Source of the DNA: Anaerolineae bacterium
GTDB lineage: Bacteria; Chloroflexota; Anaerolineae; JACRMK01
DNA length: 64,000 nt
NCBI GenBank assembly: GCA_038198935.1
Contig: JBBPZQ010000021.1
Span: 289-64,288, forward strand
Direction of reading: 5' to 3'
The translations under genes were made by a program, and so were the position numbers. Every line of letters starts with the position of its first letter. Within the stretch, counting starts at the first letter, position 1. Shown here one piece after another: positions 10,509 through 40,410 of this stretch. Under the pieces are notes generated by a model. It searched no databases. It was not told where the DNA came from and saw only the letters and a program-made list of their open reading frames with translations.

Positions 10509-11327
10509 TTACGGTGCGACCTTAATCACCACCGTGAGTGGCTGGCCGAACAGCGTTCCGTTCGGCGCGCGCATCCGCCACTTGCCCATGTAGCTGCCAG
10601 CGTTGCGTGGCGCGATCAACGGCACCGTCACCTCGGCGTTCGCGCCCGGCGCAGTGCTCGGCACATTTACTACAGCCAAATCACCCATCTGCGCGCCCTC
10701 GATGAAGGTCGCCTGATAGCCCGCATCCCACGCGCAGTTGCCTCCGTTGCGCACACGCCACGTCTTGTTGATGGTTTCGCCCGCTTTGAACGTCGTGCCA
10801 TCGGGCACGCTCACGTCCGACACAAACACCGCGTCCAACTTGCACGACGCGGGCACGGTGCCGGTGGCGAACGCGGGTGCAACGAACGTCGGCGTGCCAC
10901 TCGGCGTCGAACTGTTCGTACCGATCACGCTGACGCGCACCGTCTGCGGTCCGCTCGCGTTGCCATCCACATTGATCGCTTTCACCATCAACACGTGCGC
11001 GCCCGCATCTTTCGCAACCCACGCTTGCGAAATGGTCGCGTCGCGCGGCGCATCCGTCTCCTTCGCCACGTCGGCGCGATACAGCGCGCCATCCACCCAC
11101 AACTCCACACGCAGCACGCCGCGCGCATCATGTGATGTGCTCTGCACCTGCACGGTCGCGCCCGCGATCACTTGCGCACCGTCGGCCGGCGCGCTGACGA
11201 GCAGCGTGGGACGACTGACCTGTGCCGTCGTGGTCGGCGCGCCCGTCGGCGGCGGCGTGGTCGCGCCACACGCCAACACCCACAGCGCAAGCATCAACAG
11301 TCCACACAATCGTACGCTAAATCTCAT
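10509..11327 (-). CDS. lipoprotein with Ig-like and NBR1-type (N_BRCA1_IG-like) domains
   Basis: Start at ATG 11327 with a GGAGAGGG RBS. Lipobox LWVLAC. C-terminus FVSDVSVPDGTTFKAGETINKTWRVRNGGNCAW...SYMGKWRMRAPNGTLFGQPLTVVIKV fits the NBR1-like Ig domain pattern. Confidence 0.7.
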   Translation of the reverse strand: MRFSVRLCGLLMLALWVLACGATTPPPTGAPTTTAQVSRPTLLVSAPADGAQVIAGATVQVQSTSHDARGVLRVELWVDGALYRADVAKETDAPRDATISQAWVAKDAGAHVLMVKAINVDGNASGPQTVRVSVIGTNSSTPSGTPTFVAPAFATGTVPASCKLDAVFVSDVSVPDGTTFKAGETINKTWRVRNGGNCAWDAGYQATFIEGAQMGDLAVVNVPSTAPGANAEVTVPLIAPRNAGSYMGKWRMRAPNGTLFGQPLTVVIKVAP

Positions 11328-11513
11328 TACCCTCTCCTCGGCTGCAAATCGCGCAAGGCTAGCACGAAAGCGCGTGAGTAGCAAATGGCGGATGGCGCAT
11401 GGCCGATGACAAATAGCCCGTGACCAACCGCGCGTAGCGGATTGCTGAAATTCCTGTGCAGATGGGATTCCGTGTGAACGAGACCTGAACGGAATACGCA
11501 CCACGCACGACGC

Positions 11514-11562
11514 CATCGGCTATCGGCTATCGGCCATTTGCTATTTGCTATCCGCTATCCGC
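11514..11562. repeat. tandem heptamer array (7 direct units, [CT]ATNNGC)
   Basis: catcggc tatcggc tatcggc catttgc tatttgc tatccgc tatccgc. It lies in the divergent promoter region. Confidence 0.85.
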
Positions 11563-11579
11563 AATGTTATAACTCGCCT

Positions 11580-12734
11580 ATGCTGGCTCCGAATTGGCGC
11601 GACACGGTTCCACTGCTGCACGCGCCGCGTCATCCGCTGTGGCTTGATGCGTACAGTGGCGCGTGGGAACTGCTGGCACGCGCGCCGATAGATCACACAC
11701 AGCCTGATGCGCGTCTGCTTGCGATGTGCTTGCGCTACGCGCTGGATGCCGATGCGCTCGCGGACTGGCTCGATCAGTTCGACGCGAACGATCCACTGCG
11801 CCCGTGGTGCGAATGGGAATGCTACCAACACTCGTTCGATGCGGTGCGGCTTGCGCGCGTGCTGCCGCAATTGGTTGAGCAGTTTGCGCTGCGTTCCACA
11901 CATACGCCGCGCTCGTCACTGCGCGCCACAACGCACGAAGCCCTAGCCGCCGAGTGCATCGCGCACGCCGCGCGCGCACTGGGCGATGAAAGACTGGCGC
12001 ACCGCTTCACAGCGGAATGGCGCGCGCGTTGCACTGCGCTCAATCAGCAGTATTGGCAAGAGCCGCTCGGATTTTACATGGACGAGTCGTCAGCCAAAAC
12101 GAGCACAGGCTTCTGGCCGCTGCTCGTGGGCGCACCCTCACAAGCGAACGCAATTACAAAACACCTCGTCAACCCGGACGAGTTCTGGCGCGTGCACGTC
12201 GCGCCATCGCTCAGCGCCGACCAGCCGCGCTATGCCGATCGCGGCGCGGCGCGGCGCGGCTCTGTATACCCGCAAGACAATTATGCAATCATCAAAGGAC
12301 TGGAGCGTTACGCGCAACACCGTCTCGCGTTGCGCGTCGCCGACAATCACATCACGACCGTCTCGCACGTCTTCAAAGAGACGCGCGCGTTGTGGGATAA
12401 CTACGCGCCCGACTACATCGAGCCGGGCAGTATCGCGCATCCAGACGAACCGCTCGCCGCGTTGAGCGCCATCGCCCTGCTGATCGAAACGCTGTTCGGG
12501 CTGCGCGTGGACGCGCCGCAACGCACACTACACTGGATGCCGCGCTTGCGCGAGACGCACGGCATCGAACGCTTGCGCGTGGATGAGGCTATCGTGCGCG
12601 CGCATGTGGTGGAACGCGATGGCGCTCTGCAAGCGCAACTTGCGACGAGTGCGCCGCTGCGCTTGCATTGGTTTGGCCCGAACGGCGAGCAATGGTTGGA
12701 AGTGCAATCTGAATTTCTCGCGCCGATCACGTAG
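11580..12734 (+). CDS. (alpha/alpha)6-barrel glycoside hydrolase, GH63/trehalase-like
   Basis: Blocks FWPLLVGAP, VYPQDNYAIIKGLERY and LWDNYAPDY resemble GH63/GH37-type hydrolases. Start moved to ATG 11580 because the track start lies inside the heptamer array. TGTTATAAC sits 8 nt upstream, so the mRNA may be leaderless. Confidence 0.5.
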   Translation: MLAPNWRDTVPLLHAPRHPLWLDAYSGAWELLARAPIDHTQPDARLLAMCLRYALDADALADWLDQFDANDPLRPWCEWECYQHSFDAVRLARVLPQLVEQFALRSTHTPRSSLRATTHEALAAECIAHAARALGDERLAHRFTAEWRARCTALNQQYWQEPLGFYMDESSAKTSTGFWPLLVGAPSQANAITKHLVNPDEFWRVHVAPSLSADQPRYADRGAARRGSVYPQDNYAIIKGLERYAQHRLALRVADNHITTVSHVFKETRALWDNYAPDYIEPGSIAHPDEPLAALSAIALLIETLFGLRVDAPQRTLHWMPRLRETHGIERLRVDEAIVRAHVVERDGALQAQLATSAPLRLHWFGPNGEQWLEVQSEFLAPIT

Positions 12735-27140: not shown

Positions 27141-30100
27141 TCATTGCCTAGGCACCCACGGGAAGTACAGCACTACGCCCGGTATGCTCGTGCGCGCGCT
27201 GCGCGTGAACACGATGCCTTCGCCGTCGTCCACGCGCATTGTCGTCGTGAACGTGCTGCCGACGCCGAGCGCAGGATTGACCTGCACGGTAAATTGCAAT
27301 GAGGGCGGTATGCTCACGTCTCCTTGCCAATAGAGTGTTCGCGCGGTTTCATCATAATTGAAAGGGAAAGGTTGAGATGAGGATGCAAGTGTAACTTCGG
27401 CGGGCAGCGTGATGCTGATGCGCGCGCTCGGCACGAAGCTCAGATTGCTGCTGCTCAACTGCACCTGATATGCAAAGCGTGCGTTCGGTCTGACGAACAG
27501 CGGCGCGTTCAATGTCGAATCGCCGAGCGGCGAGAGCCAGCCGACGATGCTGCGCATGACCGTTGGTTGTGCCGTGTTCTTGATCGCTTCAAATGGGAAC
27601 GCGAAAAATACGGTCTTGAAGTTATTGCTCGTGTCGTGATAAATCAGCGCAGACGCGGCGACATCGTTGCCGATGAACGTCGGCTGCGCGCTCACGGTCG
27701 GCGTGAGGTAATCACTGAAGTTGCGATATGGATAGAGCAAGGGATACGGGCCCAATCCATCCGCGATGATGTTGCCTGGCACGCCGCTGACCGTCGTGAT
27801 GGTCATGTCGTTGGTGTACGTGAGCACGCCGAAGTATTGACGCGCGAAGTTCGAGACGTTGCCGCGCACGTACAAATAATCTTGCGCGGAGTAAAACAAG
27901 CGGCCGCCTGCGTCGAGGTAAGCGCGCAGATTATTTTCGTCGTTGTCGCTCAGTGGATCGAACCAATCGTAGCCGCTCGTCCAAACGACGACGGGATACA
28001 TCTGCAAGCGCGCGAGCGGCGGCCCCGCATAGCCGTGCGTGTCGAACTTGTCGAACGGTGCGCCATTCGCGTTTAGCGCGGCTTGATACAGCGGATCAAT
28101 GTCGTACCAACGGTCATCGTCAACGAGCAGCACCGTCGCGGGCGTCTTGCTCGTGAGCGCGCGCGTCTGCGTCGCGTTCGTGCTGGCGGCCAGCACCGCG
28201 AGCGTGAGTGTGTCCGAGACATTGCGCGCGGCGTTGGCCGGAATGTCGCTGCGGATGCCGACACTCTGCCGCGCACACGGCGCGAGCGTGAAGTTGCTGG
28301 CGAGCGTGTTCGTGAATGCGCCGTTCCAGAACGTATTCGTCCACGCATTGCCCGACGGCAGCAATGCAAACGAATCGGTGAGCGCGCCCGTGTTGCGCAG
28401 CGCGAGCGCATGCGTCACGCTCTGTGTGGGCAAGCCAACGGCAATGTTATCGTCGTAACTCAGCGCGAAGTCGTGTATGGGCGGCGGTGACATGAACCAC
28501 GTGATGAGGTTGTCCAATGCCGCCGCGCGCGCGCCGATAGGTCCTACCCCTTCGAGACCGAATCCGATATACGCGGCACGATATGGCAGGCACGTCGCCA
28601 CCGCTAGCCCAGCCAACTCGCCCCCAGCATAGGTGGCGAGCGGCTTGGCTGTTTCATCGAGCAGCGCGATTTGATCCATCGTGGTCTGGTTGCGAGCGCT
28701 GTCGGTGATATTGACGGTGAGCGTGATGCCCGCGAACGCACTGCCATCCGTGCCGCGCACGAGCGGCGACGCGACGGTGTCGCCGACGTAGTGCGCGAAG
28801 AGCCGCTGCGGGAAGTACGTCGGCGGGAAGAACAGTGCGCCTCCCCCATCCCAGAACGCCACGTCTTGGCCGCTCAAGAACAAGCGGCCGCCTTGATCCA
28901 TATATTGAATCAGTGTACCGCCCGCGCCGACGTATTCGGGCGAGTCCAGCGGCGACGACCACAGTGTGATGCTATACGCAGCCATCTCGGTGATGATCGG
29001 CGCAGCCGAGATGGGATTGGTGATCGTGTGCAGCGTATATGGATAGCCGAGCGCGTCGAGCGGCTGCGTGTAATACTGAATCTGACTGTCGTTGTACCAC
29101 GCGCCGCTATCCACCAGCAAGATGCTCGGCGCAGGCGTGAGCGCGAAGTCGCGTGTCAGCACGTCACCCGCGAACAGCGTCACCGTCGTCGTGATGGCGC
29201 GGTGGGTTGGGTTGGAGGCGCGCAAGATGTAATTGCCAATCGGCAGCGTGAAGCTGTAGTTGCCCAGCGCATCGGTCGGCGCGCTGGTCGGCGTGTTGAG
29301 CGCGCGGATCGTCGCGCTCAATGGTGCGTTCGTGCTCAGTTCGCTCACGCGCCCGCGCACAGTCGCCGTCGGCGCAATACTGAGGTCAACATCATAGCGC
29401 GTGACTTGATTGCTCGTGATGAGCACGGAGTTATTTAGTATCGGCGCGTAGCCGAACGCGCTCACCGTGATCGAGTAGCGTCCTTCGCTCAACGGCAACT
29501 CGTACGTGCCAGCGCCGTTGCTCGTCGTCTGCGTCGTGCGCGTGAAGCGGTCGGTAGCGACGATGCTGGCATTGGCAATAGGCGCGCCGCCTGACGTGAC
29601 GGTACCGCTCAACGTGCCGCGCGTGTTGACACGCAAGACGGCGGCATACGCATCCACGCGCCCCCAACCCGTCGCGTTGTTCGGCACGGTCGTGCTGAGT
29701 GGCGCGGCCGTCGAGGTGATGACGAACAGCGTGTCGCCGATACTGATGCTCGGCTGTGCCTGCATGATGAGCGCGGCCACGCCGGCGATGTGCGGCGTCG
29801 CCATGGAGGTGCCGCTCATATTGCGATAGCCGCCGCCCGGCGTGCTCGACGGGACGTTCACGCCGGGCGCAGATACGTCGGGCTTGATGTCGCCCGTGAT
29901 CGGCGAGGGACCTCGCGCCGAGAAATACGCGACCACATCGTTGCTATCTACCGCGCCGACGCCGATGCTCTCCGCGTAACTCGCGGGCGAGCCGACCGTG
30001 CCCGCGCCGTTGATGCCGTTGTTGCCGTTAGCAAATACCATGAAGATGTTTGCCGCGCGCATGGTTTGCACGTCGGCGAGGAATGTGGTGACCGTCCCGT

Positions 30101-31172
30101 TGTCATCACCCCACGAGTTCGATACAATGTCGGGCGCGAGCGAGGGGTCGCCGGCCGGCGCGAGCGTCCATTGAAACGCGGCATGAATCCACGAGTCGGT
30201 GGCATAACCCGCGTTGGTGAAAATCTTTGCGGAGATCCACTGTGCGCCGGGTGCAACGCCGATGGCGTGATCCGCAGCGCTGCCGACGAGCGTGCCCATC
30301 GTGTGCGTGCCGTGACCGTAATCGTCAATCGGATACTGCGCGCCAAGCGTGGTTGCGTCGAACCAGTTGCCGTTGTGCACCGCGGGCCCGTTCGCGCGAT
30401 AGCCGCGATATTTCGACTGCAAAGCTGGATGCTGCCAGTCCACACCCGTGTCGAGCGTCGCGACGACGACACCGCTGCCATCAATGTTAAAAGCGTTCCA
30501 CACCTGATCGGCGCGAATTTTGGCGATGTTCCATTCGACGGTTGCAGGCGTCGTCGTATTCGAGTTTGGATCCGACGGTGGACCAAAGACGGTGGACGGC
30601 AGTTGAGCCGTGACTTCCGTGTCCTGTCTTCCGTCTTCAGTCATGTCGCCGTGATCGTCATCAATGACTAACGTCTCGTTGAACAACTTACGCGTGTGAT
30701 CGGCTTTGACGACGAGCACTTCGGGGCGCGCAGCCACATCGAAAATCGTTTGCCGATCCGCGCGCGCGGCGATGGCGTTCGTGACCCAGAAGGCGCGAAT
30801 GTTATTCGCTTTGCCGTTGCGTGCGCGCGCGTCAAGCAACGAGCGTACGTCACGCTGCGTGCGCTCGGCGTGCGCTTGCAGTTTTGCGACGAGCGCGCGA
30901 CGCTGCTCGACACGACTCACGGTCTTCGCTGTGGTGAGATCAGTCGGCGCGAACTGCGCGATGAATGGGATGATCCCGTTCTTATCTTCCAGAATTTGTT
31001 TGAGCAGCGCAGGTTCGAGTTTGCGCGCCACGTCGGGCGGGATGGGCGTGGCTTGCGCGGGCGCGGCAGCGGGCGAGGCAGCGCGTGCATCGGGCGGTGT
31101 AGGTGCAAATAGAAAGATGAATGGAATGCAGAACAGCGCGAGGAGTAACCACCACGAGCGGCGTACGTACAT
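27141..31172 (-). CDS. S8 (subtilisin-like) serine protease, 1343 aa, with a large C-terminal extension
   Basis: Signal peptide and I9-like propeptide. Catalytic triad contexts VVATLDTGVD, HGTHTMGT and SGTSMATPHIAGVAAL. Two CarboxypepD_reg-like beta-sandwiches. Two tandem repeats of about 230 aa of an unassigned domain. Confidence 0.9.
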   Translation of the reverse strand: MYVRRSWWLLLALFCIPFIFLFAPTPPDARAASPAAAPAQATPIPPDVARKLEPALLKQILEDKNGIIPFIAQFAPTDLTTAKTVSRVEQRRALVAKLQAHAERTQRDVRSLLDARARNGKANNIRAFWVTNAIAARADRQTIFDVAARPEVLVVKADHTRKLFNETLVIDDDHGDMTEDGRQDTEVTAQLPSTVFGPPSDPNSNTTTPATVEWNIAKIRADQVWNAFNIDGSGVVVATLDTGVDWQHPALQSKYRGYRANGPAVHNGNWFDATTLGAQYPIDDYGHGTHTMGTLVGSAADHAIGVAPGAQWISAKIFTNAGYATDSWIHAAFQWTLAPAGDPSLAPDIVSNSWGDDNGTVTTFLADVQTMRAANIFMVFANGNNGINGAGTVGSPASYAESIGVGAVDSNDVVAYFSARGPSPITGDIKPDVSAPGVNVPSSTPGGGYRNMSGTSMATPHIAGVAALIMQAQPSISIGDTLFVITSTAAPLSTTVPNNATGWGRVDAYAAVLRVNTRGTLSGTVTSGGAPIANASIVATDRFTRTTQTTSNGAGTYELPLSEGRYSITVSAFGYAPILNNSVLITSNQVTRYDVDLSIAPTATVRGRVSELSTNAPLSATIRALNTPTSAPTDALGNYSFTLPIGNYILRASNPTHRAITTTVTLFAGDVLTRDFALTPAPSILLVDSGAWYNDSQIQYYTQPLDALGYPYTLHTITNPISAAPIITEMAAYSITLWSSPLDSPEYVGAGGTLIQYMDQGGRLFLSGQDVAFWDGGGALFFPPTYFPQRLFAHYVGDTVASPLVRGTDGSAFAGITLTVNITDSARNQTTMDQIALLDETAKPLATYAGGELAGLAVATCLPYRAAYIGFGLEGVGPIGARAAALDNLITWFMSPPPIHDFALSYDDNIAVGLPTQSVTHALALRNTGALTDSFALLPSGNAWTNTFWNGAFTNTLASNFTLAPCARQSVGIRSDIPANAARNVSDTLTLAVLAASTNATQTRALTSKTPATVLLVDDDRWYDIDPLYQAALNANGAPFDKFDTHGYAGPPLARLQMYPVVVWTSGYDWFDPLSDNDENNLRAYLDAGGRLFYSAQDYLYVRGNVSNFARQYFGVLTYTNDMTITTVSGVPGNIIADGLGPYPLLYPYRNFSDYLTPTVSAQPTFIGNDVAASALIYHDTSNNFKTVFFAFPFEAIKNTAQPTVMRSIVGWLSPLGDSTLNAPLFVRPNARFAYQVQLSSSNLSFVPSARISITLPAEVTLASSSQPFPFNYDETARTLYWQGDVSIPPSLQFTVQVNPALGVGSTFTTTMRVDDGEGIVFTRSARTSIPGVVLYFPWVPRQ

Positions 31173-31248: not shown

Positions 31249-32310
31249 CTAACGCAGCTGCTTACTGATCTCGCTTGCGGCAGAGCGTATGTTGAGGCGC
31301 AGTGTGCCGAACGGGATGTCGTTGCGGCAGACCGTCACCAACAAGACGCTCTCGCTCACATCATACGCATATAAATGATAGCGGTCGCCTTCGAGGTTCG
31401 ATTGCTGGAAGCGGCTGCGCTCGCCGACGAACGACGACAACTCGCTCGCGGCTTTGCGCCAACGCACGATGCGCTCGACAAACATCTCGACGCGCGCACC
31501 GTTGAAGTTGCTGCGCTGCGCCAGCACCGCTGCGTCTTTGATCACGAGCACCGCTTCGGCTCGAATTTCGTTCGCCAGTTTCAGCAAGATCACGTCCAGC
31601 GCGCCGTCGCCGCTGCGCGCGGCGGGTGCTGCATTGGGCGGAAGCGCCGCCGTGAAAGTTGGGGTTGCGCGCGTGGGGGACGTGCTTGGGCGCACGCGCG
31701 GGCGTGCGAGCGATGTGTTGATGAGTGGTTCAGGTTGGCGCGTCTCAGGCACGAGCGGCGCGCGCGTGGGTGGCTCGGACTTGTGGCCATTCCCCTTGCC
31801 ATTGGTTGGCGCAGCGGCCGTGGAACGCGTCGGCGTCGGCGTGCGCTGACGTAGGCGTGGTTTGCCTTTTGCCGTGCCTCGTTGCAGCACAGAAAAAGGC
31901 TTGCTCGCGTCGCTTATCTTTTCGGGTGGCGGCGGCAGCTCGACGAGCGGCCTGACAGGAATGCCAAGCACGTTCGCTATTTGCTCGCCGAGGTCGCCGA
32001 TGAAGAACGGCTTGGTGAGCGTGCCCTGCACGTCGAGCGATTGCGCGTTGTTGGGCAATGCATCGCCCAACGGAATCAACATCACCCGCGTCTGCGGCGA
32101 CGCGTGGCGAATGGACGCGACGAGCGTGGACACATCGGCAATTGCCATATCGGCGATGAGCAAGTCAGGGCTTTGCTTCTGCGCGGCAGCAACCGCAGCC
32201 GCACTCGTGCTGGCGTGCTCGGCGCTATAGTCGCCGTTCAGCTCCAGCACTTGCTTCAACATCAGCCCGAAGGCTTCGTCGGGATCGGCAATTAGAATAC
32301 GCGGCAGCAT
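31249..32310 (-). CDS. response regulator: REC domain, Pro/Thr/Arg-rich linker, Roadblock/LC7-like C-terminal domain (tentative)
   Basis: REC motifs ILIADPD, LLIADMAI and TLTKPF. The C-terminal ~115 aa (AEAVLVIKDAAVLAQ ... HLYAYDVSESVLLVTVC ... FGTLRLNIRSAASEISKQL) follow the MglB/Roadblock pattern. Confidence 0.6.
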   Translation of the reverse strand: MLPRILIADPDEAFGLMLKQVLELNGDYSAEHASTSAAAVAAAQKQSPDLLIADMAIADVSTLVASIRHASPQTRVMLIPLGDALPNNAQSLDVQGTLTKPFFIGDLGEQIANVLGIPVRPLVELPPPPEKISDASKPFSVLQRGTAKGKPRLRQRTPTPTRSTAAAPTNGKGNGHKSEPPTRAPLVPETRQPEPLINTSLARPRVRPSTSPTRATPTFTAALPPNAAPAARSGDGALDVILLKLANEIRAEAVLVIKDAAVLAQRSNFNGARVEMFVERIVRWRKAASELSSFVGERSRFQQSNLEGDRYHLYAYDVSESVLLVTVCRNDIPFGTLRLNIRSAASEISKQLR

Positions 32311-32387: not shown

Positions 32388-33233
32388 CTAACGCAGGGTG
32401 ACGCGCATGATGACGAGCGCACTCACGCCGAGGAGCGCAAGCGCGAGCAGGCTCAGTTCGATCGGGTGCAGGTCGAAGGTGTTCGGTGCTGAGGTGGAAG
32501 GCACAGACTCGGCAGGAATGGCTGTGCGCGTCGGCGCGGTGGTCGGCACTGCGGTTGGCACGTTCGTAGCAGTCGCCGTGGGTGCGCGTGTGTTCGTCGG
32601 CACGGCGGTCGGGCTTGCAGTTGACGTGGGCGTGCTGCTCACGCTGGCGCTGGCGACGATGGGCGAGCGCGTTGTGGGTATCGTCGGCGTGGCAGCCAGT
32701 GTGGGCGCACTCGTCGGCGCGGCGGCTGCGCTGGTTGGTTGCGACGGCTGCTGCGGTGCAGTGGTCGCCGCCAGTGCGCCCGCCGGTGCGCTGGTCGAGG
32801 CTTTCGATTCATTCGTCGCCGAATCAGCAGCCTGTGCTGCGGCAGCCAGCGTCGGCGCCGATGCTATTTGTGGCGCCGATGCGCGAGTCGCAGAGTTCGA
32901 TGAACGGTTGACCGCGAACACATCCGCGCCGACGACGACGACCAGCAGCAACACGGCGAGCGCGGTCATGCCTTGCAGCGCGCGATAGCCCCAACTGCTC
33001 TGCCAGCGCGGCAAGGTGTGCGCCGCCGTTTCGGGCGAGAGCGTGAACGAGCGCGGCGCGCGCACGGCTGGCATCGCCGCGACGAGCCGCTGTGTATATT
33101 GCAGCGATGCGAGGTCGCGCTGACACGCGGCACACGCGCGCAGGTGCTGGGCGACGCGCGAGCGTTCCGACGCGCTCAACTGGTTGTCGAGGTACGCCGA
33201 TAATTGATCGGTGATATGCTTAGCGTTACTCAT
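32388..33233 (-). CDS. zf-HC2 anti-sigma factor with a long low-complexity ectodomain and a C-terminal hydrophobic helix
   Basis: HLRACAACQRDLASL zinc-finger motif. TM1 is LQGMTALAVLLLVVVVGADVF. About 150 aa rich in Ala/Thr/Ser/Pro. C-terminal LSLLALALLGVSALVIM. Start overlaps the sigma gene stop. Confidence 0.75.
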   Translation of the reverse strand: MSNAKHITDQLSAYLDNQLSASERSRVAQHLRACAACQRDLASLQYTQRLVAAMPAVRAPRSFTLSPETAAHTLPRWQSSWGYRALQGMTALAVLLLVVVVGADVFAVNRSSNSATRASAPQIASAPTLAAAAQAADSATNESKASTSAPAGALAATTAPQQPSQPTSAAAAPTSAPTLAATPTIPTTRSPIVASASVSSTPTSTASPTAVPTNTRAPTATATNVPTAVPTTAPTRTAIPAESVPSTSAPNTFDLHPIELSLLALALLGVSALVIMRVTLR

Positions 33234-33859
33234 AATCGTTCACTGCTTAGACGAAACTGTTCGGGCAAATGTTCCTGTCGCTCCAGCAGCCAATCGCGCA
33301 GGCGCAGCCGCGCGCGATTGAGGCGTGACTTGACCGTGCCGAGATTGGTCTGCGTCGCCGATGCAATCTCTTCATACGATAAACCCTGCACGTCTGCCAA
33401 CACGAGCACGATGCGCTGGTCGTCCGGCAGTTGGCTAATACCGTGCTGCAATAAGCGGTGCAACTCCGCGCGCGCCGCGTGCTCTTCGGGACCTTCGCGC
33501 GAGTCTACGAAGTCGGGCGGCTCGCGCTCCTCGTCGCTGTTCAGCATGTCTTCGAGCGAATCGGCGGGCCGACGCTTGCGCGCGCGCACGTAATCGTAGC
33601 AGGCGTTGGTCACGATGCGCAGCAGCCACGCTTTGAACGAACCGTCGCGATAATCTTTGAGGTGTTTGTATGCGGAGATGAACGCTTCTTGGGTCGTGTC
33701 TGCCGCCGAGTCGCCGTCGCCGAGGATGCGATACGCGGTGTAGTACAGCGCGTCTTGATATAATTCGACCAGACGATTGAATGCGCGCAGGTCGCCGCGC
33801 TTGGCGGATTGAATTAGTTCGCGTTCGACGCGCGCTTGGGCTTCACTCATGGGGGGCAC
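33230..33859 (-). CDS. ECF-type RNA polymerase sigma factor
   Basis: Region 2 (FNRLVELYQDALYYTAYRILGD, EAFISAYKHL) and region 4 (LPDDQRIVLVLADVQGLSYEEIASATQTNLGTVKSRLNRAR). Confidence 0.88.
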   Translation of the reverse strand: MPPMSEAQARVERELIQSAKRGDLRAFNRLVELYQDALYYTAYRILGDGDSAADTTQEAFISAYKHLKDYRDGSFKAWLLRIVTNACYDYVRARKRRPADSLEDMLNSDEEREPPDFVDSREGPEEHAARAELHRLLQHGISQLPDDQRIVLVLADVQGLSYEEIASATQTNLGTVKSRLNRARLRLRDWLLERQEHLPEQFRLSSERL

Positions 33860-33884: not shown

Positions 33885-33913
33885 TTGACAGCGCAACTGT
33901 CCTCGCGTATACT
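33885..33913 (+). promoter_or_regulatory. consensus sigma70 promoter of tRNA-Leu
   Basis: TTGACA (33885-33890), a 17-nt spacer, then TATACT (33908-33913), 28 nt before the tRNA. Confidence 0.65.
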
Positions 33914-33940: not shown

Positions 33941-34026
33941 GCCGAGGTGGCGGAACTGGCAGACGCGCTGGACTCAAAATCCAGTGCCTCGAAAGAGGCG
34001 TGTGGGTTCGATTCCCTCCCTCGGCA
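33941..34026 (+). tRNA. tRNA-Leu (anticodon CAA), class II with a long variable arm
   Basis: GCCGAGG acceptor stem paired with CCTCGGC. Anticodon stem-loop CTGGA-CTCAAAA-TCCAG. Long variable arm TGCCTCGAAAGAGGCGT. T-loop TTCGATT. One U-U mismatch in the T stem. CCA is not encoded. Confidence 0.88.
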
Positions 34027-34041
34027 CTGTGCTTATCCTCA

Positions 34042-34079: not shown

Positions 34080-34277
34080 GCATTATATCATAGCCCTCGT
34101 CCCTCCTTAATAAGCTAAGCCTCTGAGCCTCCACTCGCGTTTATCTGCCGATTCGTCCGTCTAACTCCACAGAGCAGCAGCCTCTCAGCGTATAGCCTGT
34201 AGTTCTCAGTTACACCGCGCTTGTCCATGCTTATACTGTTCGCGGCGCATTGAACTTTGAACGGAAGGCGATGACTG

Positions 34278-35309
34278 ATGGACGAACAGATAACCCCGAC
34301 GCGGCGTTTTTATGTCATTTTGCTGAGCTTGGTGCTGTTTGCGCTGGTGGATGGATTCGTGTTCGGCGTGTTCGCGGCGCTGTCCGCCCAACCAGCCAGC
34401 GCGGCGACAGACACGCAAGCGGAGACGGACGATTACATCGCGCTCATCAGTGCGACGTTCCAATTCGATCAAGACCTTGCCGCAGCGATGCAGCGGTTGA
34501 GCGCGCTCAATCGGGATGCCAATGTCGCGAGCAAACTGGTCGTGGCGGCGCGGACACGCGCGACTGCTCACCACCTTACACAGCGCGCCGAGTCCATCGC
34601 GGCGCTCGCACAGGCTCTGCGTGCCGCCACTGCGTTGAATGAAGTCTCGCCCGAAACGCCCACGCCTACCTTCACACCTTTCGTGCTCGCTGCTTTGGAT
34701 CTGGCTGCGCCTGCGCCGAGCACGCCGACACCGCAAAATACGCTGACGAGCGCGCCAGCCACGACCACTCGAACGAACACGCCAACGCGCGCGCCGGCCG
34801 CCACGCGCACGGCGACGCCGACACGCCTGCCAACTTCGACGCGCACGCCACGACCGAAGGCGACGGCGACGCAAGTCGTCGTTCCACAGAGCACGGCGAC
34901 GGCGACGCCCAGCGTGGATTACAAAATTACACTCGTGCGCCAACTCACGCCGTGCGAGAACGAAGGCAATCACAACATCTACGTGCTCGTGCTCGATCAG
35001 CAGGGCAACGGCATCGCTGGCGTGCAAGTCGAAGCCGTGTGGTCGCCCGGCTCGATGCGTGCGTTCACAGGGCAGAAGGTCGAATACATTCCGTCGCTTG
35101 GCGTAAACGCGCAGACGACGGCGGGTTTCGTAAACCTGCCGATGTATAAAGGCAGCTATCGGGTGCATGTGCTGGGCGCGGTCAGCGAGTGGACAGACTG
35201 GCTGACAGTGGACATCCCGCGCGACGAGTTGTGCGCGGCGACCGATAACCCGCAAGCCAACTCGCTGTTCCATTATTCATATTTGGTGGTTTTCCAAAAA
35301 GTGAGGTAA
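34278..35309 (+). CDS. paralog 1: signal-anchored protein (TM, helical juxtamembrane module, PT linker, orphan C-terminal domain)
   Basis: 343 aa. TM is FYVILLSLVLFALVDGFVFGVFAAL. Helical module DDYIALISATFQFDQDLAAAMQRLSAL. C-terminal domain VDYKITLVRQLTPCENEGNHNIY...TGQKVEYIP...NSLFHYSYLVVFQKVR, shared with 37543-40410. Confidence 0.8.
   Translation: MDEQITPTRRFYVILLSLVLFALVDGFVFGVFAALSAQPASAATDTQAETDDYIALISATFQFDQDLAAAMQRLSALNRDANVASKLVVAARTRATAHHLTQRAESIAALAQALRAATALNEVSPETPTPTFTPFVLAALDLAAPAPSTPTPQNTLTSAPATTTRTNTPTRAPAATRTATPTRLPTSTRTPRPKATATQVVVPQSTATATPSVDYKITLVRQLTPCENEGNHNIYVLVLDQQGNGIAGVQVEAVWSPGSMRAFTGQKVEYIPSLGVNAQTTAGFVNLPMYKGSYRVHVLGAVSEWTDWLTVDIPRDELCAATDNPQANSLFHYSYLVVFQKVR
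34911..35306 (+). other. orphan C-terminal domain, copy 1 (~132 aa)
   Basis: Roughly 60% amino-acid identity by eye to copy 4 (40015-40407). Two conserved Cys. Confidence 0.7.
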
Positions 35310-35313
35310 AAGA

Positions 35314-35362
35314 TTCACGCATGACGTATTCGTCAATCGTAATGCGTAATGCGTGATGCGTA
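35314..35362. repeat. heptamer-built element (ATGCGTA-type units) with a short inverted match
   Basis: ttcacgc atgacgt attcgtc aatcgta atgcgta atgcgtg atgcgta. tcacgcat pairs with atgcgtga. Confidence 0.7.
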
Positions 35363-35382
35363 ATTTAACTCAGGACTACTGA

Positions 35383-36435
35383 ATGAACCGTGTACTTGGT
35401 CCCGTGCTTGGGTTGATACTATTGGGCATCGTCATCGGCTTTGTGCTGGGCGTGGTGGTCGGTGTGTTTGTGCTGCCCGTGTCGTTTACCAATACCGACG
35501 TTTCCAATCTGCGTCCCGCGCAGAAAGATGATTACGTCGTAATGGTCAGCGCGGCGTATGCGCTCGACAACAATTTGTCGGATGCGAAGCAGCGACTTGC
35601 GCGGCTTGATAACGACCAGAGCGCGGCGGCAAAATACGTCGCCGATGTCGCACAGCGCTCGATTGACAAGAACGACACGCGCAACGCTCGAAACATCGCC
35701 GCGCTTGCTATCGCGCTCGGCGCGGGCACATCGTCGCTGCGCAATTATGTGAACGCTGCGTCGTCGCCTGCGCCGACGCCCATCGCCACGTTCACGCCAA
35801 CAGCCGCCGCAACCGCCAAACCTGCCGCACTGCTCGAGGACAGGCAAACGCCGACGCCAACCACCGCCGACACCGACACCCCTTCGCCGACGAAGACAGC
35901 CGTGAAAGCGACCAGCACCGCGCGCCCGCCGACGGCAACATTCACGCCCGCGCCGCCAAAGGCGACCGCCACATCCGTGCCGCCGACCAAAGCGCCCCAA
36001 CCTGCCGTTGCGTTCAAGGTCATCGAGCAGCGCATGTTGAGCATTACGGAGAATGGCGGCTGCGCCGGCAATCATACGTTCTACATCAAAGCGGTTGACA
36101 TCAATGGCGTGCCTCTCCCGAACATCATCGTCGAACGTCGCTATGTGGCACAAGTGGCAGTGCCGCCGACGGGCGCTAAAGGGCCAGGGCGCACCGAAGA
36201 CGAAGCGGGCGATGGCAATGCCTATCACGTGCTGCGCGATACTGGCGGCACGGCATTTACGAGCGATTGGACGCGCGAGATGAGCACGATTGACGAAGCC
36301 ATCCCGAACAGCGACCTTATCGCGTCGGGTTATTGCGCAAACGACGCCGATTGCAACGCGCGCAAGGGCGTCACGGTCAACCTACTGTGCCGACGGCATT
36401 ATTCGTATAGCGTGACGTTCCAGCGGCAGTGGTAA
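35383..36435 (+). CDS. paralog 2: signal-anchored protein with the same architecture and a divergent C-terminal domain
   Basis: 350 aa. TM, helical module DDYVVMVSAAYALDNNLSDAKQRLARL, PT linker, then C-terminus FKVIEQRML...CAGNHTFYIKAVDINGVPLPNIIV...HYSYSVTFQRQW. Confidence 0.75.
   Translation: MNRVLGPVLGLILLGIVIGFVLGVVVGVFVLPVSFTNTDVSNLRPAQKDDYVVMVSAAYALDNNLSDAKQRLARLDNDQSAAAKYVADVAQRSIDKNDTRNARNIAALAIALGAGTSSLRNYVNAASSPAPTPIATFTPTAAATAKPAALLEDRQTPTPTTADTDTPSPTKTAVKATSTARPPTATFTPAPPKATATSVPPTKAPQPAVAFKVIEQRMLSITENGGCAGNHTFYIKAVDINGVPLPNIIVERRYVAQVAVPPTGAKGPGRTEDEAGDGNAYHVLRDTGGTAFTSDWTREMSTIDEAIPNSDLIASGYCANDADCNARKGVTVNLLCRRHYSYSVTFQRQW
36013..36432 (+). other. orphan C-terminal domain, copy 2 (divergent, with inserted Cys-rich loop)
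   Basis: Retains GNH...(Y/F)(I/V)...D..G.(P/G)(I/L), and its HYSYSVTFQ end matches the HYSYLVVFQ end of copies 1 and 4. Confidence 0.5.
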
Positions 36436-36439
36436 AAAT

Positions 36440-36513
36440 GGTCGTCAGTCATGAGTCGCTAGTCGTTAGTTGCATATCGGGCTAACGACTAATGACGAGC
36501 GACGAACGACTAC
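36440..36513. repeat. heptamer-built hairpin (AGTCNNN x4 / NNNNCGA-CT x5)
   Basis: ggtcgtc agtcatg agtcgct agtcgtt agttgca tatcggg ctaacga ctaatga cgagcga cgaacga ctac. It ends at the ATG of paralog 3. Confidence 0.85.
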
Positions 36514-37374
36514 ATGAAATACGTTCTCGCCTTTCTGTTCGGCGTTGCGCTCGGACTGGCGACGGCGCTGGCGATTGTGTGGGGACTGCTCACGCCAGAG
36601 CCAACGCAAATCGTCACCGACCCGTCAGGCTTAACCACCGAATCAAAAGAAGAGTACATCCTGCTGGTCAGCATGACGTTCGTGCAGGATGGCGACCTCG
36701 AACGCGCGAAGCAGCGGCTGGTGCTGCTGAACGACCTCAACTTGCAGACCACGCTCGCGCGCTTGGCGGAACGCTACATCTCAGACTTGCGACCCGAACC
36801 GCAGCGGCGCGCGCTGGCGAAGATGGCAGTGGCAATGGGCGCAGACTCGGCGGCGCTGCGCGTCTATATCATCACGCCGACGCCGACGATGACGCTGCCG
36901 CCCACACCGACGTCTCCACCGACGAACACACCCGAACCACTCACGCCGACCCCGACCGCAACACTCACGCCGACGCCGACCAGTACCCGAATACCAACGG
37001 CGACGCCAACGCAAGCGCCGCGCGTGACGTTCCGCTTGTTCGAGCAAGCGCGCGTGCCGTGCGATCAGGACAAGACTGGTCGCGCGCAATTGTTGATCTA
37101 CGTCCAAGACCTAGCGGGCAAGGGCATCCCCGGCGTGAAGGTGCGCGTGCAGTGGGGCGAGGGTCAAGACGAGTTCTTCACCGGACTGAAAGGCACGGAT
37201 CCCGGCTACGCCGACTACGATCTGCTGCCCGCCAAAAGCTACAGCGCGCTCGTCGTGGACGGCACCAGTCAGATTGCGTTTAACTTGGACAGCGATCAAC
37301 TCGATCCCGAATGTCCCAACGACGGCAAGTCGCACTTCCGCGCGTGGCGCGTTGTCTTTCGCCGCAACAATTGA
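36514..37374 (+). CDS. paralog 3: signal-anchored protein with the same architecture and the most divergent C-terminal domain
   Basis: 286 aa. TM, helical module EEYILLVSMTFVQDGDLERAKQRLVLL, PT linker, then C-terminus VTFRLFEQARVPCDQ...LLIYVQDLAGKGIPGVKVRVQW...FTG...ECPNDG...FRAWRVVFRRNN. No clear RBS. Confidence 0.65.
   Translation: MKYVLAFLFGVALGLATALAIVWGLLTPEPTQIVTDPSGLTTESKEEYILLVSMTFVQDGDLERAKQRLVLLNDLNLQTTLARLAERYISDLRPEPQRRALAKMAVAMGADSAALRVYIITPTPTMTLPPTPTSPPTNTPEPLTPTPTATLTPTPTSTRIPTATPTQAPRVTFRLFEQARVPCDQDKTGRAQLLIYVQDLAGKGIPGVKVRVQWGEGQDEFFTGLKGTDPGYADYDLLPAKSYSALVVDGTSQIAFNLDSDQLDPECPNDGKSHFRAWRVVFRRNN
37024..37371 (+). other. orphan C-terminal domain, copy 3 (divergent)
   Basis: Same order of landmarks: Cys near the start, (Y/F)V.D..GKGIP.V.V...W, TG, a second Cys, and a terminal hydrophobic strand. 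Confidence 0.5.
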
Positions 37375-37542
37375 GACAGGAGAGAAGTCAGACTTCTTGA
37401 CCAGTCTGCCTTCTGCTCTCGAGACTGGGACAATCGTACTAAAACAGAATATCTGTTCGCACCGACGGCTTGACCGATTTGCACATTTTCGCATTTACTG
37501 TCACAATCCCAACCTGAATCTGACGCTTGAGGTTAAACAACG

Positions 37543-40410
37543 ATGAAAGAGACGTTCATCTCGAACGCCCCGTTGTTCTCATCGCTCTCGCTCGACGAGC
37601 AATCGTTGATCGGCGGTGCGATGAAAGCGCAGACCTTTGCCAATGGTGAACGACTGCTATTGCAAGGTCAGCCCGTGCAGCAGTTGTACCTTATCCAAGC
37701 AGGCTGGATCAAGCAGACGACTGCGCTGGATGGTGGTCGTACGCTCGTCAACAATCTCGGACCCGGCAGCCTCGTGGCCGAGATGGACGCACTCTTAGAT
37801 CAGCCTGCGACCAGCAGTGCCGAAGCGCATAGCGATGTGTCGCTTTGGGCACTCAGCAAGACCGACCTTGATGAAATCCTCGCACAGCACCCGCTCATTG
37901 CCTTGAAGTTCAGCACCGCACTCGGCACACGGCTCCAACAAGTGGATCGCTATCTGATCAATCAGCGTCTGCGCGCCGCCCCGCTCTTCGCCGAACTGGG
38001 CGACGACGAGTTGAGCGCGATTGCCGCAAAACTGTCGCCGCTCGAAGTGCGGCGCGGCGGCATGATCTTCCGCGCCGGCACTGCCAGCGATGCGCTGTTC
38101 CTGATCGAAGACGGCGATGTGCTGCTCAGCACCGCACGCATCGAAGGCAACGACACGCGCACACTTCACGCCGGCGAACTGCTGGGCGAGATGGCGGTGC
38201 TGACCAACAAGCCTTACGACGGCGCGGCACGCGCTTCGTCCGAGTGCGTGTTGTGGATGCTGCGCCGCGAAGACTTCGGCGCGCTTACCGAACAGTATCC
38301 AAAGATTCGCGCCGCGTTGAGTGCACGACTCTCGCAGCCGCTCGGTCAAACCGATCGCGCGCTGGCGCGGCAGCAACTCGCCAAACTTACGTTGTTCGCA
38401 GACCTACCCGCCGAAGTTGTGGATGGCGTGGCGAGCGTGATCGTGCTGCGCCATGTCCCGTCGGGCGAGAAAATCTTCAGCGCGGGCGACAGCGGCGACT
38501 CGCTCATCATCGTCGAGCAGGGCGAGGTGCAGCTCGTCGGCGATGCGAAACTGATGACCCTGCGCGCGGGCGACTACTACGGCGAGCAGAGCTTGCTCAC
38601 GGGCAAGACGCGCACCGAGAGCGCGCTCGCCGCGAGCGATTGCAACCTCTGGATTCTCTCGCGCAGCGATTACGATGAGCTGCTGGCACGCTTCCCCGCG
38701 CTCGGCACGGCGTTGAGCAAAGCCGTGAGCGCGCGACTGAGCGACGGCAGCAACTCCGCGTTCCTCCATCAGCAATTGAAACACATGCCGCTGTTCGCCA
38801 ACTTGGGCGAGGCGGAACTGCAAGAGATCGCGTGTGCGCTCTACGCGCAGACCTATCGGCGCGGCGAAGTCATCTTCGCCGAAGGGCAGCGCGCCGACGC
38901 CGCGTTCCTCATCGAATCCGGCGAAGTCCAGTTGGCGACGCGCGTTGGCGATTCGTATCAGATGCACTTCGAGCGCATGGGCGCGGGCGACTTCTTCGGC
39001 GAGATTGCATTGCTCGCGGAAGGCGCGCGCAAATCCACCGCGCGGTCCATCGGCGACGAGACGCAAGTGTGGGTGTTGTACAAGAGCGACTTTGATCGCA
39101 TCCTTGCCAAGTTCCCGCAGCTCGCGTCGCAGTTGAGCAAGGTGATGAGTGAGCGACTGGCGCGCGCCGATGAGCGTCCCGCCCCGCGACGGCAAGTCAC
39201 GCCGCCGAGCAATGGCGCACGCCCAATCGCGCCGCGTCCGGTCAGCGTCAGGGCTTCGACCACGCCAGCGGTGAAGCGACCTAGCGCGCAGCCAAATAGT
39301 GCGCGCCCGACGCCACTAACATTGAAGCCGACGAGTGAGCCGAAGCCCGCGCGTCCAGTCGCGGGACAGCGGCAGACAACAGCCGTGTCTGCGCGACCGC
39401 TTGCAGGGGGTGTGCCACAAGCGATGCCCGTGCCCGCACGGCCACAACCGCGCAGCATGTCTGAGCGCGCCGTGACCCCGCTGCTGGTTGCCGGTTCCTC
39501 AGCAGCGCGTGCCGTGGCACCCCGAGCCGCCGCATCGCGCACCGCGGTGGTCACGGCGAGCAGCCATCAGGCGCAGAGCAGTCCAGTCACGCTTGCCGTG
39601 TATAACAGCATGAACTGGATGAAGGCGCGTTCGCTCGGTTTCAAATTCCGCATGGTCGCGGTCACGATGTTGTTCGTGTGGCTATGCGGCATTACCGCGC
39701 CCGTCGCGGTGCTGTCCGCGCTCAACTCACCGCAATCGGCGAACGCGCTCTCCGTTGGAGGTCTGGCTGTCGTGCTCGGCGATGGCTCGTCAGCCAATCA
39801 AGCAAACGCGTTAGCCACCTTCACCGCCACACCGCCCGCCGCATCCGGTCAGCAGCGCAACGCGCCGCCCGTCAGCGCGACGAAGGCAGTAGCGCAAGTA
39901 GCCGGCAAGACGCCGACGAAAGTTGCGGCTCGACCTACGCAGGGATCACCGACGAACTCAGCGCAGACGCTCAATCCGGTTCCGGCGGACGTGCAGCAAC
40001 CGACCTCGACGCCGAGCGTGGATTACAAACTGGTGAAGGTGCGCCAGCTCACGCCGTGCGAGAACAACGGCAACCATCACATCTTCGCGCTCGTGCTCGA
40101 CAAAGATGGCAAGGGCATTCCGAACGTAGATGTCGAGTTCATTTGGGACAGCGGCTCGTTCAAGGATCGCACAGGGCAGAAGGTCGAATACATTCCCGCG
40201 CTCGGCATCACGAATCAAACCACCACTGGCTACGTCAACTGGCCCATCTACAAGGGCCGCACGCGCGTGCGTGTTTCAAACAGCGCGAGCGATATGACCG
40301 ATTGGCTGCGCGTGGACTTGCCCGACCAGCGCTGCGACGCGAACGACAACCCGATCGGCAACTCGCTGTTCCATTATTCGTATCTGGTTGTATTCCAAAA
40401 GGTACGCTGA
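37543..40410 (+). CDS. paralog 4: four cNMP-binding domains, low-complexity linker, TM helix, PT linker, orphan C-terminal domain
   Basis: 955 aa. Four CAP_ED-like units, each opening (A/M/T)(P/L)LF(S/A)(S/E/D/N)L and containing G(E/D)..GE(M/Q/I). TM is FRMVAVTMLFVWLCGITAPVAVLSAL. C-terminus VDYKLVKVRQLTPCENNGNHHIF...TGQKVEYIP...NSLFHYSYLVVFQKVR. Confidence 0.85.
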   Translation: MKETFISNAPLFSSLSLDEQSLIGGAMKAQTFANGERLLLQGQPVQQLYLIQAGWIKQTTALDGGRTLVNNLGPGSLVAEMDALLDQPATSSAEAHSDVSLWALSKTDLDEILAQHPLIALKFSTALGTRLQQVDRYLINQRLRAAPLFAELGDDELSAIAAKLSPLEVRRGGMIFRAGTASDALFLIEDGDVLLSTARIEGNDTRTLHAGELLGEMAVLTNKPYDGAARASSECVLWMLRREDFGALTEQYPKIRAALSARLSQPLGQTDRALARQQLAKLTLFADLPAEVVDGVASVIVLRHVPSGEKIFSAGDSGDSLIIVEQGEVQLVGDAKLMTLRAGDYYGEQSLLTGKTRTESALAASDCNLWILSRSDYDELLARFPALGTALSKAVSARLSDGSNSAFLHQQLKHMPLFANLGEAELQEIACALYAQTYRRGEVIFAEGQRADAAFLIESGEVQLATRVGDSYQMHFERMGAGDFFGEIALLAEGARKSTARSIGDETQVWVLYKSDFDRILAKFPQLASQLSKVMSERLARADERPAPRRQVTPPSNGARPIAPRPVSVRASTTPAVKRPSAQPNSARPTPLTLKPTSEPKPARPVAGQRQTTAVSARPLAGGVPQAMPVPARPQPRSMSERAVTPLLVAGSSAARAVAPRAAASRTAVVTASSHQAQSSPVTLAVYNSMNWMKARSLGFKFRMVAVTMLFVWLCGITAPVAVLSALNSPQSANALSVGGLAVVLGDGSSANQANALATFTATPPAASGQQRNAPPVSATKAVAQVAGKTPTKVAARPTQGSPTNSAQTLNPVPADVQQPTSTPSVDYKLVKVRQLTPCENNGNHHIFALVLDKDGKGIPNVDVEFIWDSGSFKDRTGQKVEYIPALGITNQTTTGYVNWPIYKGRTRVRVSNSASDMTDWLRVDLPDQRCDANDNPIGNSLFHYSYLVVFQKVR
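40015..40407 (+). other. orphan C-terminal domain, copy 4
   Basis: Shares exact nucleotide runs with copy 1, for example cacagggcagaaggtcgaatacattcc and aactcgctgttccattattc. Confidence 0.7.

Follow-up and report, generated by a model that had tools for sequence, protein, structure and literature searches.

Four co-directional genes, P1 to P4, in the Anaerolineae DNA analysed here (the window, 64,000 nucleotides of contig JBBPZQ010000021.1) encode membrane proteins that each end in the same domain of 118–144 aa, hereafter the C-domain. Its core is CarboxypepD_reg-like, and the domain is best placed as a new, uncatalogued family of a known superfamily, not as a fold of its own. Far from being an orphan, it has members in hundreds of clusters at 50% identity, and these are lineage-specific. 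In Chloroflexota the genes recur as part of a conserved unit next to a tRNA-Leu(CAA) gene, which may encode an envelope sensing or anchoring complex. The coordinates are collected in Table 1.

The C-terminal domain and the proteins that carry it

A first-pass annotation of this DNA had proposed that the four genes share a C-terminal domain and had put the identity of the P1 and P4 copies, by eye, at about 60%. BLASTP gave 64.7% identity over 136 aa for this pair (E 5e-59) and approximately 27–33% for the P2 and P3 copies against P1/P4. All four are recognised by a family profile built independently from 101 members of other organisms, each less than 48% identical to any window copy; the scores were 133 bits for P1, 119 for P4, 92 for P3 and 73 for P2, and 400 shuffled P2/P3 domains reached 4.7 bits at most. 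A six-frame scan of the window recovered exactly four copies. As the annotation had held, the domain is unassigned: no Pfam-A (2025) or NCBIfam (2026) model covers it in the window proteins or in 44 family members, and PDB sequence searches returned no match with one copy and none below E 0.007 with the family profile. Weak NCBIfam matches to the gliding-motility proteins GltJ/GltG, to MXAN_5187 and to DnaX were discarded because they lie on the low-complexity Pro/Thr linkers. Full-text literature searches and the ECF re-classification paper (PMC7826278) contained no mention of either the cluster or the domain.

An exhaustive HMMER scan of 1.84 billion cluster representatives yielded 881 matches at E<=1e-3, 155 at <=1e-10 and 30 at <=1e-30. 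Among the best 150 of the 881 there were 121 single full-length matches, 107 of which (88%) place the domain at the extreme C-terminus. Where at least 40 aa precede it (106 full-length matches), a transmembrane segment lies upstream in 89 and a linker with at least 35% Pro+Thr directly upstream in 63. In the rest of the best 150, which are multi-repeat proteins of the CarboxypepD_reg, Big_1 or SdrD kind, the match covers profile positions of about 12–90 only. Word-indexed protein searches gave 3, 48 and 36 matches, all named 'hypothetical protein' and devoid of Pfam domains, and a cluster look-up added one named relative, a hypothetical protein of an Anaerolineaceae metagenome-assembled genome (MAG).

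The AlphaFold model of the P1 C-domain (mean local confidence, pLDDT, 85; predicted TM-score, pTM, 0.82) is all-beta; apart from its eight strands it has a single short helix, on which C16, E17 and N18 are located. Foldseek searches of the PDB and of viral models matched it to prealbumin-like sandwiches only (E >= 2e-3, TM-score 0.33–0.44), namely transthyretin/5-hydroxyisourate (HIU) hydrolase, carboxypeptidase regulatory domains, CnaB pilins/adhesins, intradiol-dioxygenase cores and phage fibre domains. Alignment of the family profile with nine CarboxypepD_reg domains by hhalign gave 88.7% probability (E 2.6e-6) for residues 23–92 (55 columns, query positions 25–83 of 127), with the N- and C-terminal thirds unmatched. 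Sub-threshold Pfam matches among the 44 members, to Big_1 in 22 and to CarboxypepD_reg in 11, fall on the V.D..G.P..GV hairpin; none of P1–P4 matched PF13620 (gathering threshold 32.3 bits), and the best of the 44 members stayed below that threshold at E 6.6e-4. The likeness to transthyretin and CarboxypepD_reg sandwiches noted in the first-pass annotation thus applies to the core. That annotation had named two outcomes that would speak against a new family, a confident match over the whole domain to a characterised family, and absence of the domain outside this genome together with a lack of expression; the profile and structure matches are partial or weak, and the domain is abundant elsewhere.

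Conservation was assessed over 128 domains and numbered on the 133-aa P1 domain (P1 aa 211–343). It is highest at G73 (99%), C109 (97%), G33 (96%) and D30, S124 and F129 (95% each), followed by E17 and N18 (91% each), S93 (88%), V28 (87%), R11 and H122 (86% each), T54 (84%), L13 (81%), G20 and K57 (80% each), W45 (79%), H22 (77%), N118 (68%) and C16 (62%). Most of the conserved polar residues (R11, E17, N18, H22, the C16–C109 pair, N118, H122 and S124) are carried by the two elements specific to the family, an N-terminal strand and helix, R..L(T)PCEN.GNH, and a C-terminal extension of approximately 40 aa (C109, N118, H-x-S...F). Judged from the order of the strands and not from measured distances, E17, N18, H22, C16–C109, N118 and H122 should lie in loops at one end of the sandwich. 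The full E17-N18-H22-H122-S124 set is present in 95 of the 128 domains and lost in P3. The cysteine pair, which probably forms a disulfide, fits an oxidising extracytoplasmic location.

Hydropathy analysis found one strong hydrophobic segment per protein in P1–P4, preceded by basic residues, from which an N-in, C-out topology is predicted. The four are therefore read as single-pass type II membrane proteins with a predicted extracytoplasmic C-domain, in agreement with the display outside the membrane suggested earlier. In P1–P3 the transmembrane segment is directly followed by a helical module of about 95 aa (N-module) and then by a Pro/Thr-rich linker of about 45–100 aa leading to the C-domain. 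The N-module, also seen in the first pass as a second module common to the three short paralogs, occurs in exactly three copies in the six-frame scan, is kept in orthologues from more than 20 loci and has the consensus ...L.P...E(D/E)Y(V/I).MV(A/S)A.Y..D.DL..A..RL..L...(L/V)AERYI...R...L..LA.ALG. Its AlphaFold model (38 sequences, pLDDT 88) consists of the transmembrane helix and five further helices, for which Foldseek returned weak matches to tetratricopeptide repeat (TPR)-like structures only (IpgC, Nup358 TPR, designed TPRs and LpoP; E about 0.1, TM-score about 0.3). A Pfam scan of the window proteins gave no TPR match on the module. The metagenomic proteins P0197–P0231, of about 126–136 aa, consist of a membrane anchor and an N-module that is up to 74% identical to that of P2. 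The module thus exists also without the beta-sandwich domain, and some of these proteins may be fragments from short contigs.

P4 differs from the short paralogs in its cytoplasmic part. Pfam places it in PF00027 above threshold (E 5.2e-73, 241 bits) over four stretches. By the predicted topology these four cyclic-nucleotide-binding (CNB) domains lie on the cytoplasmic side and the C-domain beyond the single transmembrane segment. In an alignment of 22 P4 orthologues the canonical GE...R-T phosphate-binding cassette is conserved in CNB3 only (consensus yFGEmALLTGKtRtvtA); CNB1, CNB2 and CNB4 have no conserved Arg at the cassette position. We take this motif to be the contact to the cyclic nucleoside monophosphate (cNMP), and CNB3 is the likely functional cNMP site of P4, as predicted from its sequence.

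Conserved gene order and neighbourhood

A genome scan seeded with 12 P1/P4-like domains, and hence biased towards such sequences in its taxonomic coverage, identified 79 loci. All of them come from MAGs or genomes of Chloroflexota, with Anaerolineae, Anaerolineales, Caldilineaceae (Caldilinea aerophila among them) and Ardenticatenia represented. None is more than 59% identical to P1, so the species of the window itself is missing from the representatives. An occurrence outside Chloroflexota was rejected: the contig of a 'Propionibacteriaceae bacterium UBA8946' MAG (L040, DMIX01000121.1) matches an Anaerolineae contig (L039) at 97.9% identity along its entire 6.6 kb and is therefore probably mis-binned.

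Synteny was derived from tblastn of the window modules against the loci and from clustering of open reading frames (ORFs), with many loci cut by contig ends. One unit is shared by at least 20 loci, which belong to Anaerolineales, Caldilineaceae and Ardenticatenia. It runs from an optional receiver protein, an anti-sigma factor and a sigma factor of extracytoplasmic function (ECF) type, all on one strand, across the divergent tRNA-Leu(CAA) gene to two or three short paralogs (P2-type, sometimes with a second, P3-type) and a P4-type CNB paralog. The P4-type gene is present in 36 loci, and its architecture recurs in proteins P0008, P0019 and P0029; the ECF sigma factor was found in 23 loci, the anti-sigma factor in 20, and P2 and P3-type orthologues in about 25 each. 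In L018, L046 and L060 the unit is reduced to a P3-like gene and, after it, a paralog with two CNB domains. Genes downstream of P4 differ between clades, and the conserved unit therefore ends at P4. P1-type genes are restricted to the window, L001 and L003, which identifies P1 as a recent duplicate; this lineage-specific extra paralog combines a P2/P3-like N-terminal half with a P4-like C-domain.

Successive genes of the window cluster are separated by 73, 78 and 168 nt, and intergenic gaps of 15–170 nt are compatible with an operon. Horizontal transfer of P1–P4 was considered and rejected, as their GC content and third-position GC content (GC3) equal those of the neighbours. An Arg-rich antisense ORF of 355 aa (34206-35273, minus strand) overlaps P1 and is longer than it; no homology supports it, and it is a shadow ORF of the sort typical of high-GC DNA, which might mislead gene callers.

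The first-pass annotation had placed the cluster beside tRNA-Leu and divergent from an ECF sigma/anti-sigma/response regulator/S8 protease operon. Of these neighbours, the sigma factor, the anti-sigma factor and the tRNA are indeed conserved; the receiver protein occurs in seven loci and some lineages only, and the S8 protease was rejected as a functional partner, being syntenic only in L001, the closest relative of the window (1 of 81 loci). The divergent pair is composed as expected for an ECF sigma/zf-HC2 anti-sigma pair: the sigma factor has Sigma70_r2 and r4 but lacks r3, and the neighbouring gene encodes a membrane protein whose N-terminal domain is zf-HC2. By hydropathy the window anti-sigma factor has a transmembrane segment at aa 90–108, an extended extracytoplasmic stretch rich in Pro, Thr and Ala, and another hydrophobic segment (aa 258–276) at its extreme C-terminus. 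In L023, L031, L050, L057 and L073 the orthologue has at its end, in place of that segment, a beta-rich domain of about 100 aa without a Pfam match; that of L071 has both. The receiver protein consists of the receiver domain, a Pro-rich linker and a C-terminal domain with a weak match to Robl_LC7 (E 0.005, below cut-off), and is devoid of a DNA-binding output domain.

In 22 of 23 cluster loci, which represent several orders and include some without the ECF gene, the gene directly upstream of the paralogs is a tRNA-Leu(CAA) gene of the same strand. It was seen in L001, L003, L018, L023-L025, L030, L031, L046, L048, L050, L055, L057, L060, L065, L067, L069, L071, L073, L076, L077 and L080. A conserved sigma-70-type promoter, TTGAC(A/G)-N17-TATACT, precedes this tRNA and reads TTGACG-N17-TATACT in other loci. 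Control of the bldA type via tRNA-Leu(CAA) was rejected, because TTG makes up 20–25% of the Leu codons in all window genes. A riboswitch or other known RNA in the cluster leader was not recovered by Rfam. In Caldilineaceae a conserved element of about 110 nt lies between the tRNA and the first paralog gene; it comprises a ATTATAAC box, ATGTGCTAG, two hairpins, GGCCACYTC...GRRGCGGCC and a U-tract resembling a terminator, in this order. Three to four of its base pairs show compensatory changes, and it too is without an Rfam match. The element may represent a small RNA or a leader/attenuator; the window has no recognisable copy of it. A bacterial 16S rRNA gene (Rfam SSU_rRNA_bacteria, 689 bits) is truncated at the edge of the window, which contains its 5' half (positions 1-756, minus strand).

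Table 1. Features of the P1–P4 cluster and its neighbours in the window, with the Caldilineaceae leader elements given in the coordinates of their own loci.
Feature	Position (nt)	Strand	Description
P1	34278..35309	+	343 aa; ORF list
P1 transmembrane segment	34314-34370		aa 13-31
P1 TPR-like N-module	34311-34658
P1 Pro/Thr linker	about 34659-34904
P1 C-terminal domain	34905-35303
P2	35383..36435	+	350 aa; ORF list
P2 transmembrane segment	35404-35460		aa 8-26
P2 TPR-like N-module	35395-35754		followed by Pro/Thr linker
P2 C-terminal domain	35995-36432	+	insertions, extra cysteines
P3	36514..37374	+	286 aa; ORF list
P3 transmembrane segment	36523-36579		aa 4-22
P3 TPR-like N-module	to 36876		followed by Pro/Thr linker
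P3 C-terminal domain	37015-37368	+	degenerate; without E17, N18, H22
P4	37543..40410	+	955 aa; ORF list
P4 CNB domains (four)	about 37543-39180		followed by disordered Pro/Ala/Ser region
P4 CNB3 phosphate-binding cassette	38575..38631	+	YYGEQSLLTGKTRTESALA
P4 transmembrane segment	39655-39711		aa 705-723; followed by Pro/Thr/Ala linker
P4 C-terminal domain	40009-40404
Candidate sigma-70-type promoter	34209..34237	+	GTTACA-17-TATACT; 9/12 consensus positions, weak (consensus scan); about 40 nt upstream of P1
tRNA-Leu(CAA)	33941..34027	+	upstream of P1; ARAGORN; Rfam tRNA at 56 bits
Sigma-70-type promoter of tRNA-Leu	33885..33913	+	TTGACA-17-TATACT; 11/12 consensus positions
ECF sigma factor	33230..33859	-	Sigma70_r2, Sigma70_r4_2, Sigma70_ECF; divergent from P1-P4
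zf-HC2 anti-sigma factor	32388..33233	-	PF13490, E 2e-10
Receiver-domain protein	31249..32310	-	Response_reg, E 2e-8
S8 peptidase	27141..31172	-	two CarboxypepD_reg domains; neighbour, not part of the conserved module
Caldilineaceae leader element, L048	3735-3845	+
Caldilineaceae leader element, L051	72-190	+
Caldilineaceae leader element, L055	3676-3785	+
Caldilineaceae leader element, L065	3517-3616	+
Caldilineaceae leader element, L067	3562-3675	+
Caldilineaceae leader element, L069	3633-3750	+
Caldilineaceae leader element, L071	3510-3635	+

Possible roles of the domain and the cluster

The first-pass annotation had stated that function cannot be inferred from the sequence. This applies only in part, since the domain fusions of the family are suggestive. 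The Pfam scan found the C-domain joined to GH5/GH39/GH42-like TIM barrels of glycoside hydrolases (GH) in P0055, P0057, P0061, P0085 and P0146, to an N-acetylmuramoyl-L-alanine amidase (Amidase_2) in P0120, to CarboxypepD_reg, dockerin and TIG domains in P0020, P0028 and P0055 (P0020 with dockerin and CarboxypepD_reg), and to a zf-HC2 anti-sigma domain with SAF and GH5-like domains in P0060, P0082 and P0146. The enzyme-fused copies keep E17, N18 and S124 and mostly both histidines. Such a pattern is suggestive of a carbohydrate- or wall-binding module, and a role as a spacer is compatible with it as well.

Members of the commonest kind are 'simple' proteins of about 245 aa, made up of a transmembrane segment, a Pro/Thr linker and the domain. 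Downstream of them, in 21 of 35 loci, comes a gene for a protein of about 600 aa (transmembrane segment, Pro/Thr linker, beta domains, no Pfam match), and in 13 of 35 they divergently adjoin the gene of an rpoD-like primary sigma factor. This is a second conserved locus of the domain, in a housekeeping context; in L009, for example, the protein of about 600 aa is encoded at 10387-12201 (plus strand) and the rpoD-like gene at 7585-8823 (minus strand).

Taken together, we consider it a little short of an even chance that the cluster combines envelope-glycan binding, a P2-P3-P4 complex, cNMP binding by CNB3 and an ECF-dependent arm. The C-domain would be a non-catalytic ligand-binding module held on a 'wall-spanning' Pro/Thr stalk, with a cell-wall or sheath glycan as its most probable ligand and E17, N18, H22, W45, Y84, N118, H122 and S124 as the predicted contact set. 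The conserved operon would then specify three kinds of component of a complex for envelope sensing or anchoring. P2 and P3, together with the recent duplicate P1, would contribute the TPR-like juxtamembrane module as a protein-interaction surface; P2, P3 and P4 might assemble through these modules, their ectodomains or both, with P3, whose site is degenerate, as a putative non-binding partner. P4 would couple the external domain to a cytoplasmic receptor for cyclic AMP or cyclic GMP, with CNB3 as the likely site, and the divergent ECF sigma/membrane anti-sigma pair would be the probable transcriptional arm. A stronger version, in which P4-type receptors, tethered by one transmembrane helix and the Pro/Thr stalk to an external glycan-binding domain, form with their paralogs a class-wide trans-envelope signalling device of filamentous Chloroflexota that couples a second messenger to the state of the wall or sheath, or vice versa, and feeds into ECF-dependent transcription, appears doubtful to us.

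Several observations weigh against glycan sensing coupled to the ECF pair. Dyad and k-mer searches of 14 intergenic regions upstream of the cluster revealed no ECF-type motif and recovered only the tRNA itself, its sigma-70-like promoter and a TATA-like box after the tRNA, and three complete loci (L075–L077) are devoid of the ECF gene; the link to the ECF pair may therefore be one of synteny without co-regulation. The site is not uniform, as the relatives fused to anti-sigma and GH domains replace H22 and sometimes H122. Foldseek, Pfam and PDB sequence searches of the C-domain gave no match to an established carbohydrate-binding module (CBM), and CarboxypepD_reg-like and Ig-like domains also adjoin glycoside hydrolases as inert spacers.

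The last point leads to the alternative that the C-domain is a structural or oligomerisation module without ligand specificity, serving a hetero-oligomeric envelope scaffold such as a filament or sheath architecture, with its conserved residues stabilising the fold or a protein-protein interface. We regard this as unlikely, yet it accounts for several features of the family. Several paralogs, including the degenerate P3, are always encoded together, as is typical of hetero-oligomers; modules of the TPR-like kind mediate protein contacts; the 'simple' members lie in a housekeeping context beside rpoD and precede another protein with a transmembrane segment, a Pro/Thr stretch and beta domains; and CarboxypepD_reg-like domains are often spacers. 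The retention of about ten polar residues (E, N, H, D, K, S, N, H, S) over deep divergence, however, goes beyond the normal needs of a fold, and the domain also occurs singly in enzyme fusions, where oligomerisation is less obvious.

An invariant-looking Glu-Asn, His and His-x-Ser set in loops stapled by the probable disulfide could also point to enzymatic activity. The domain would then be a small enzyme outside the cytoplasm that acts on an envelope polymer or a small molecule, perhaps with a metal bound by E17, H22 and H122, and P3, the one paralog in which the site is specifically lost, would be a pseudoenzyme. Prealbumin-like folds do host active sites, as in the HIU hydrolase and the intradiol dioxygenases that Foldseek matched, but the TM-scores are only 0.35–0.43, the domain has neither the C-terminal YRGS motif nor the Tyr/Tyr/His/His pattern of iron ligands, both histidines are substituted in several otherwise intact relatives, and the domain is typically appended to real catalytic domains, as binding modules are. 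We find an enzymatic role quite improbable. That P1–P4 are surface adhesins for cell-cell, filament-filament or substrate contacts without signalling, their ECF and tRNA adjacency being inherited gene order only, is likewise quite improbable: a long Pro/Thr stalk with a distal beta-sandwich is a Gram-positive adhesin architecture, pilus adhesins and pilins (SpaC, RrgA, FbaB) and phage tail-fibre domains occur among the Foldseek matches, and no ECF promoter was found, but a passive adhesin would have no use for the four cytoplasmic CNB domains to which P4 joins the domain in all clusters, the membrane anchor is N-terminal, and both a sortase signal and the CnaB isopeptide Lys/Asn pattern are missing.

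Sludge, sediments and hot springs harbour abundant filamentous Anaerolineae, whose envelope biology and signalling are, to our knowledge, almost unstudied. The C-domain marks two conserved loci in these bacteria, of which one adjoins rpoD and the other an ECF sigma/anti-sigma pair. Should its ligand be a glycan of the wall or sheath, as we favour, the domain would offer a handle on the envelope polymers of these bacteria and a new binding-module family for annotation of the CAZy type, and P4 would be an unusual link between cyclic-nucleotide signalling and the cell surface. If it is a structural spacer only, it would be an ordinary domain of unknown function.

Comparison with known systems

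With CarboxypepD_reg (PF13620) and prealbumin-like domains the C-domain shares the core of residues 23–92 or so, including the V-x-D-x-x-G-x-P-x-x-G-V hairpin, and the occurrence in extracytoplasmic multidomain proteins. It differs by the additional N-terminal strand and short helix, the C-terminal extension, the probable conserved disulfide, the strong preference for the extreme C-terminus and, in the genomes found, the restriction to Chloroflexota/Anaerolineae. The prealbumin- or transthyretin-like fold is a seven-stranded Greek-key beta-sandwich; the C-domain model has eight strands, and its best Foldseek matches all have this fold, at the low TM-scores given above. HIU hydrolase, an enzyme of this fold with a catalytic His/Arg/His set and a C-terminal Tyr-Arg-Gly-Ser motif, is matched by Foldseek with a TM-score of 0.40 (3qva); the C-domain ends in H-Y-S-Y-L-V-V-F-Q-K-V-R and thus without YRGS. 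CnaB/SpaA pilin domains have a Lys in the first strand, an Asn/Asp in the last, a catalytic Glu and an LPXTG sorting signal. They resemble the C-domain in their related reverse-Ig/prealbumin-like topology and stalked display, and 2x5p, 6m7c and 2ww8 are among the best Foldseek matches. In contrast to them, the C-domain has R11 in place of the Lys, no isopeptide pattern, no LPXTG and an N-terminal anchor, the TM-scores do not exceed 0.42, and SpaA (PF17802) gave no Pfam match on the C-domain in the window proteins and the 44 members.

The closest functional analogy is provided by the RsgI-type anti-sigma factors of Clostridium (Acetivibrio) thermocellum, which carry extracellular CBM or GH sensing modules and act with SigI in polysaccharide sensing. 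Similarly, P0060, P0082 and P0146 join an N-terminal anti-sigma domain and one transmembrane segment to an extracytoplasmic C-domain with GH5/GH42-like modules, and the window cluster adjoins a sigma/anti-sigma pair, so that the logic of an outside glycan module acting on an alternative sigma factor would match. The regulatory link is putative here, and the window system differs in using zf-HC2 and ECF instead of RsgI_N and SigI and in carrying the domain on separate membrane proteins.

Membrane proteins with cytoplasmic CNB domains are known as MloK1-type cyclic-nucleotide-gated channels and as CNB-regulated transporters, and P4 resembles them in its bona fide PF00027 domains on the cytoplasmic side. 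It differs in having a single transmembrane segment, four tandem CNB domains with one canonical cassette and no channel, transporter or enzymatic output, its only other folded part being the extracellular beta-sandwich. If the proposed role holds, a P4-type receptor without enzymatic or channel output would have no characterised counterpart. The display of the C-domain on a membrane stalk is a familiar design; less ordinary is a class-wide paralog array that includes a four-CNB single-pass protein without an output domain, in fixed association with tRNA-Leu(CAA) and usually with an ECF sigma/anti-sigma pair.

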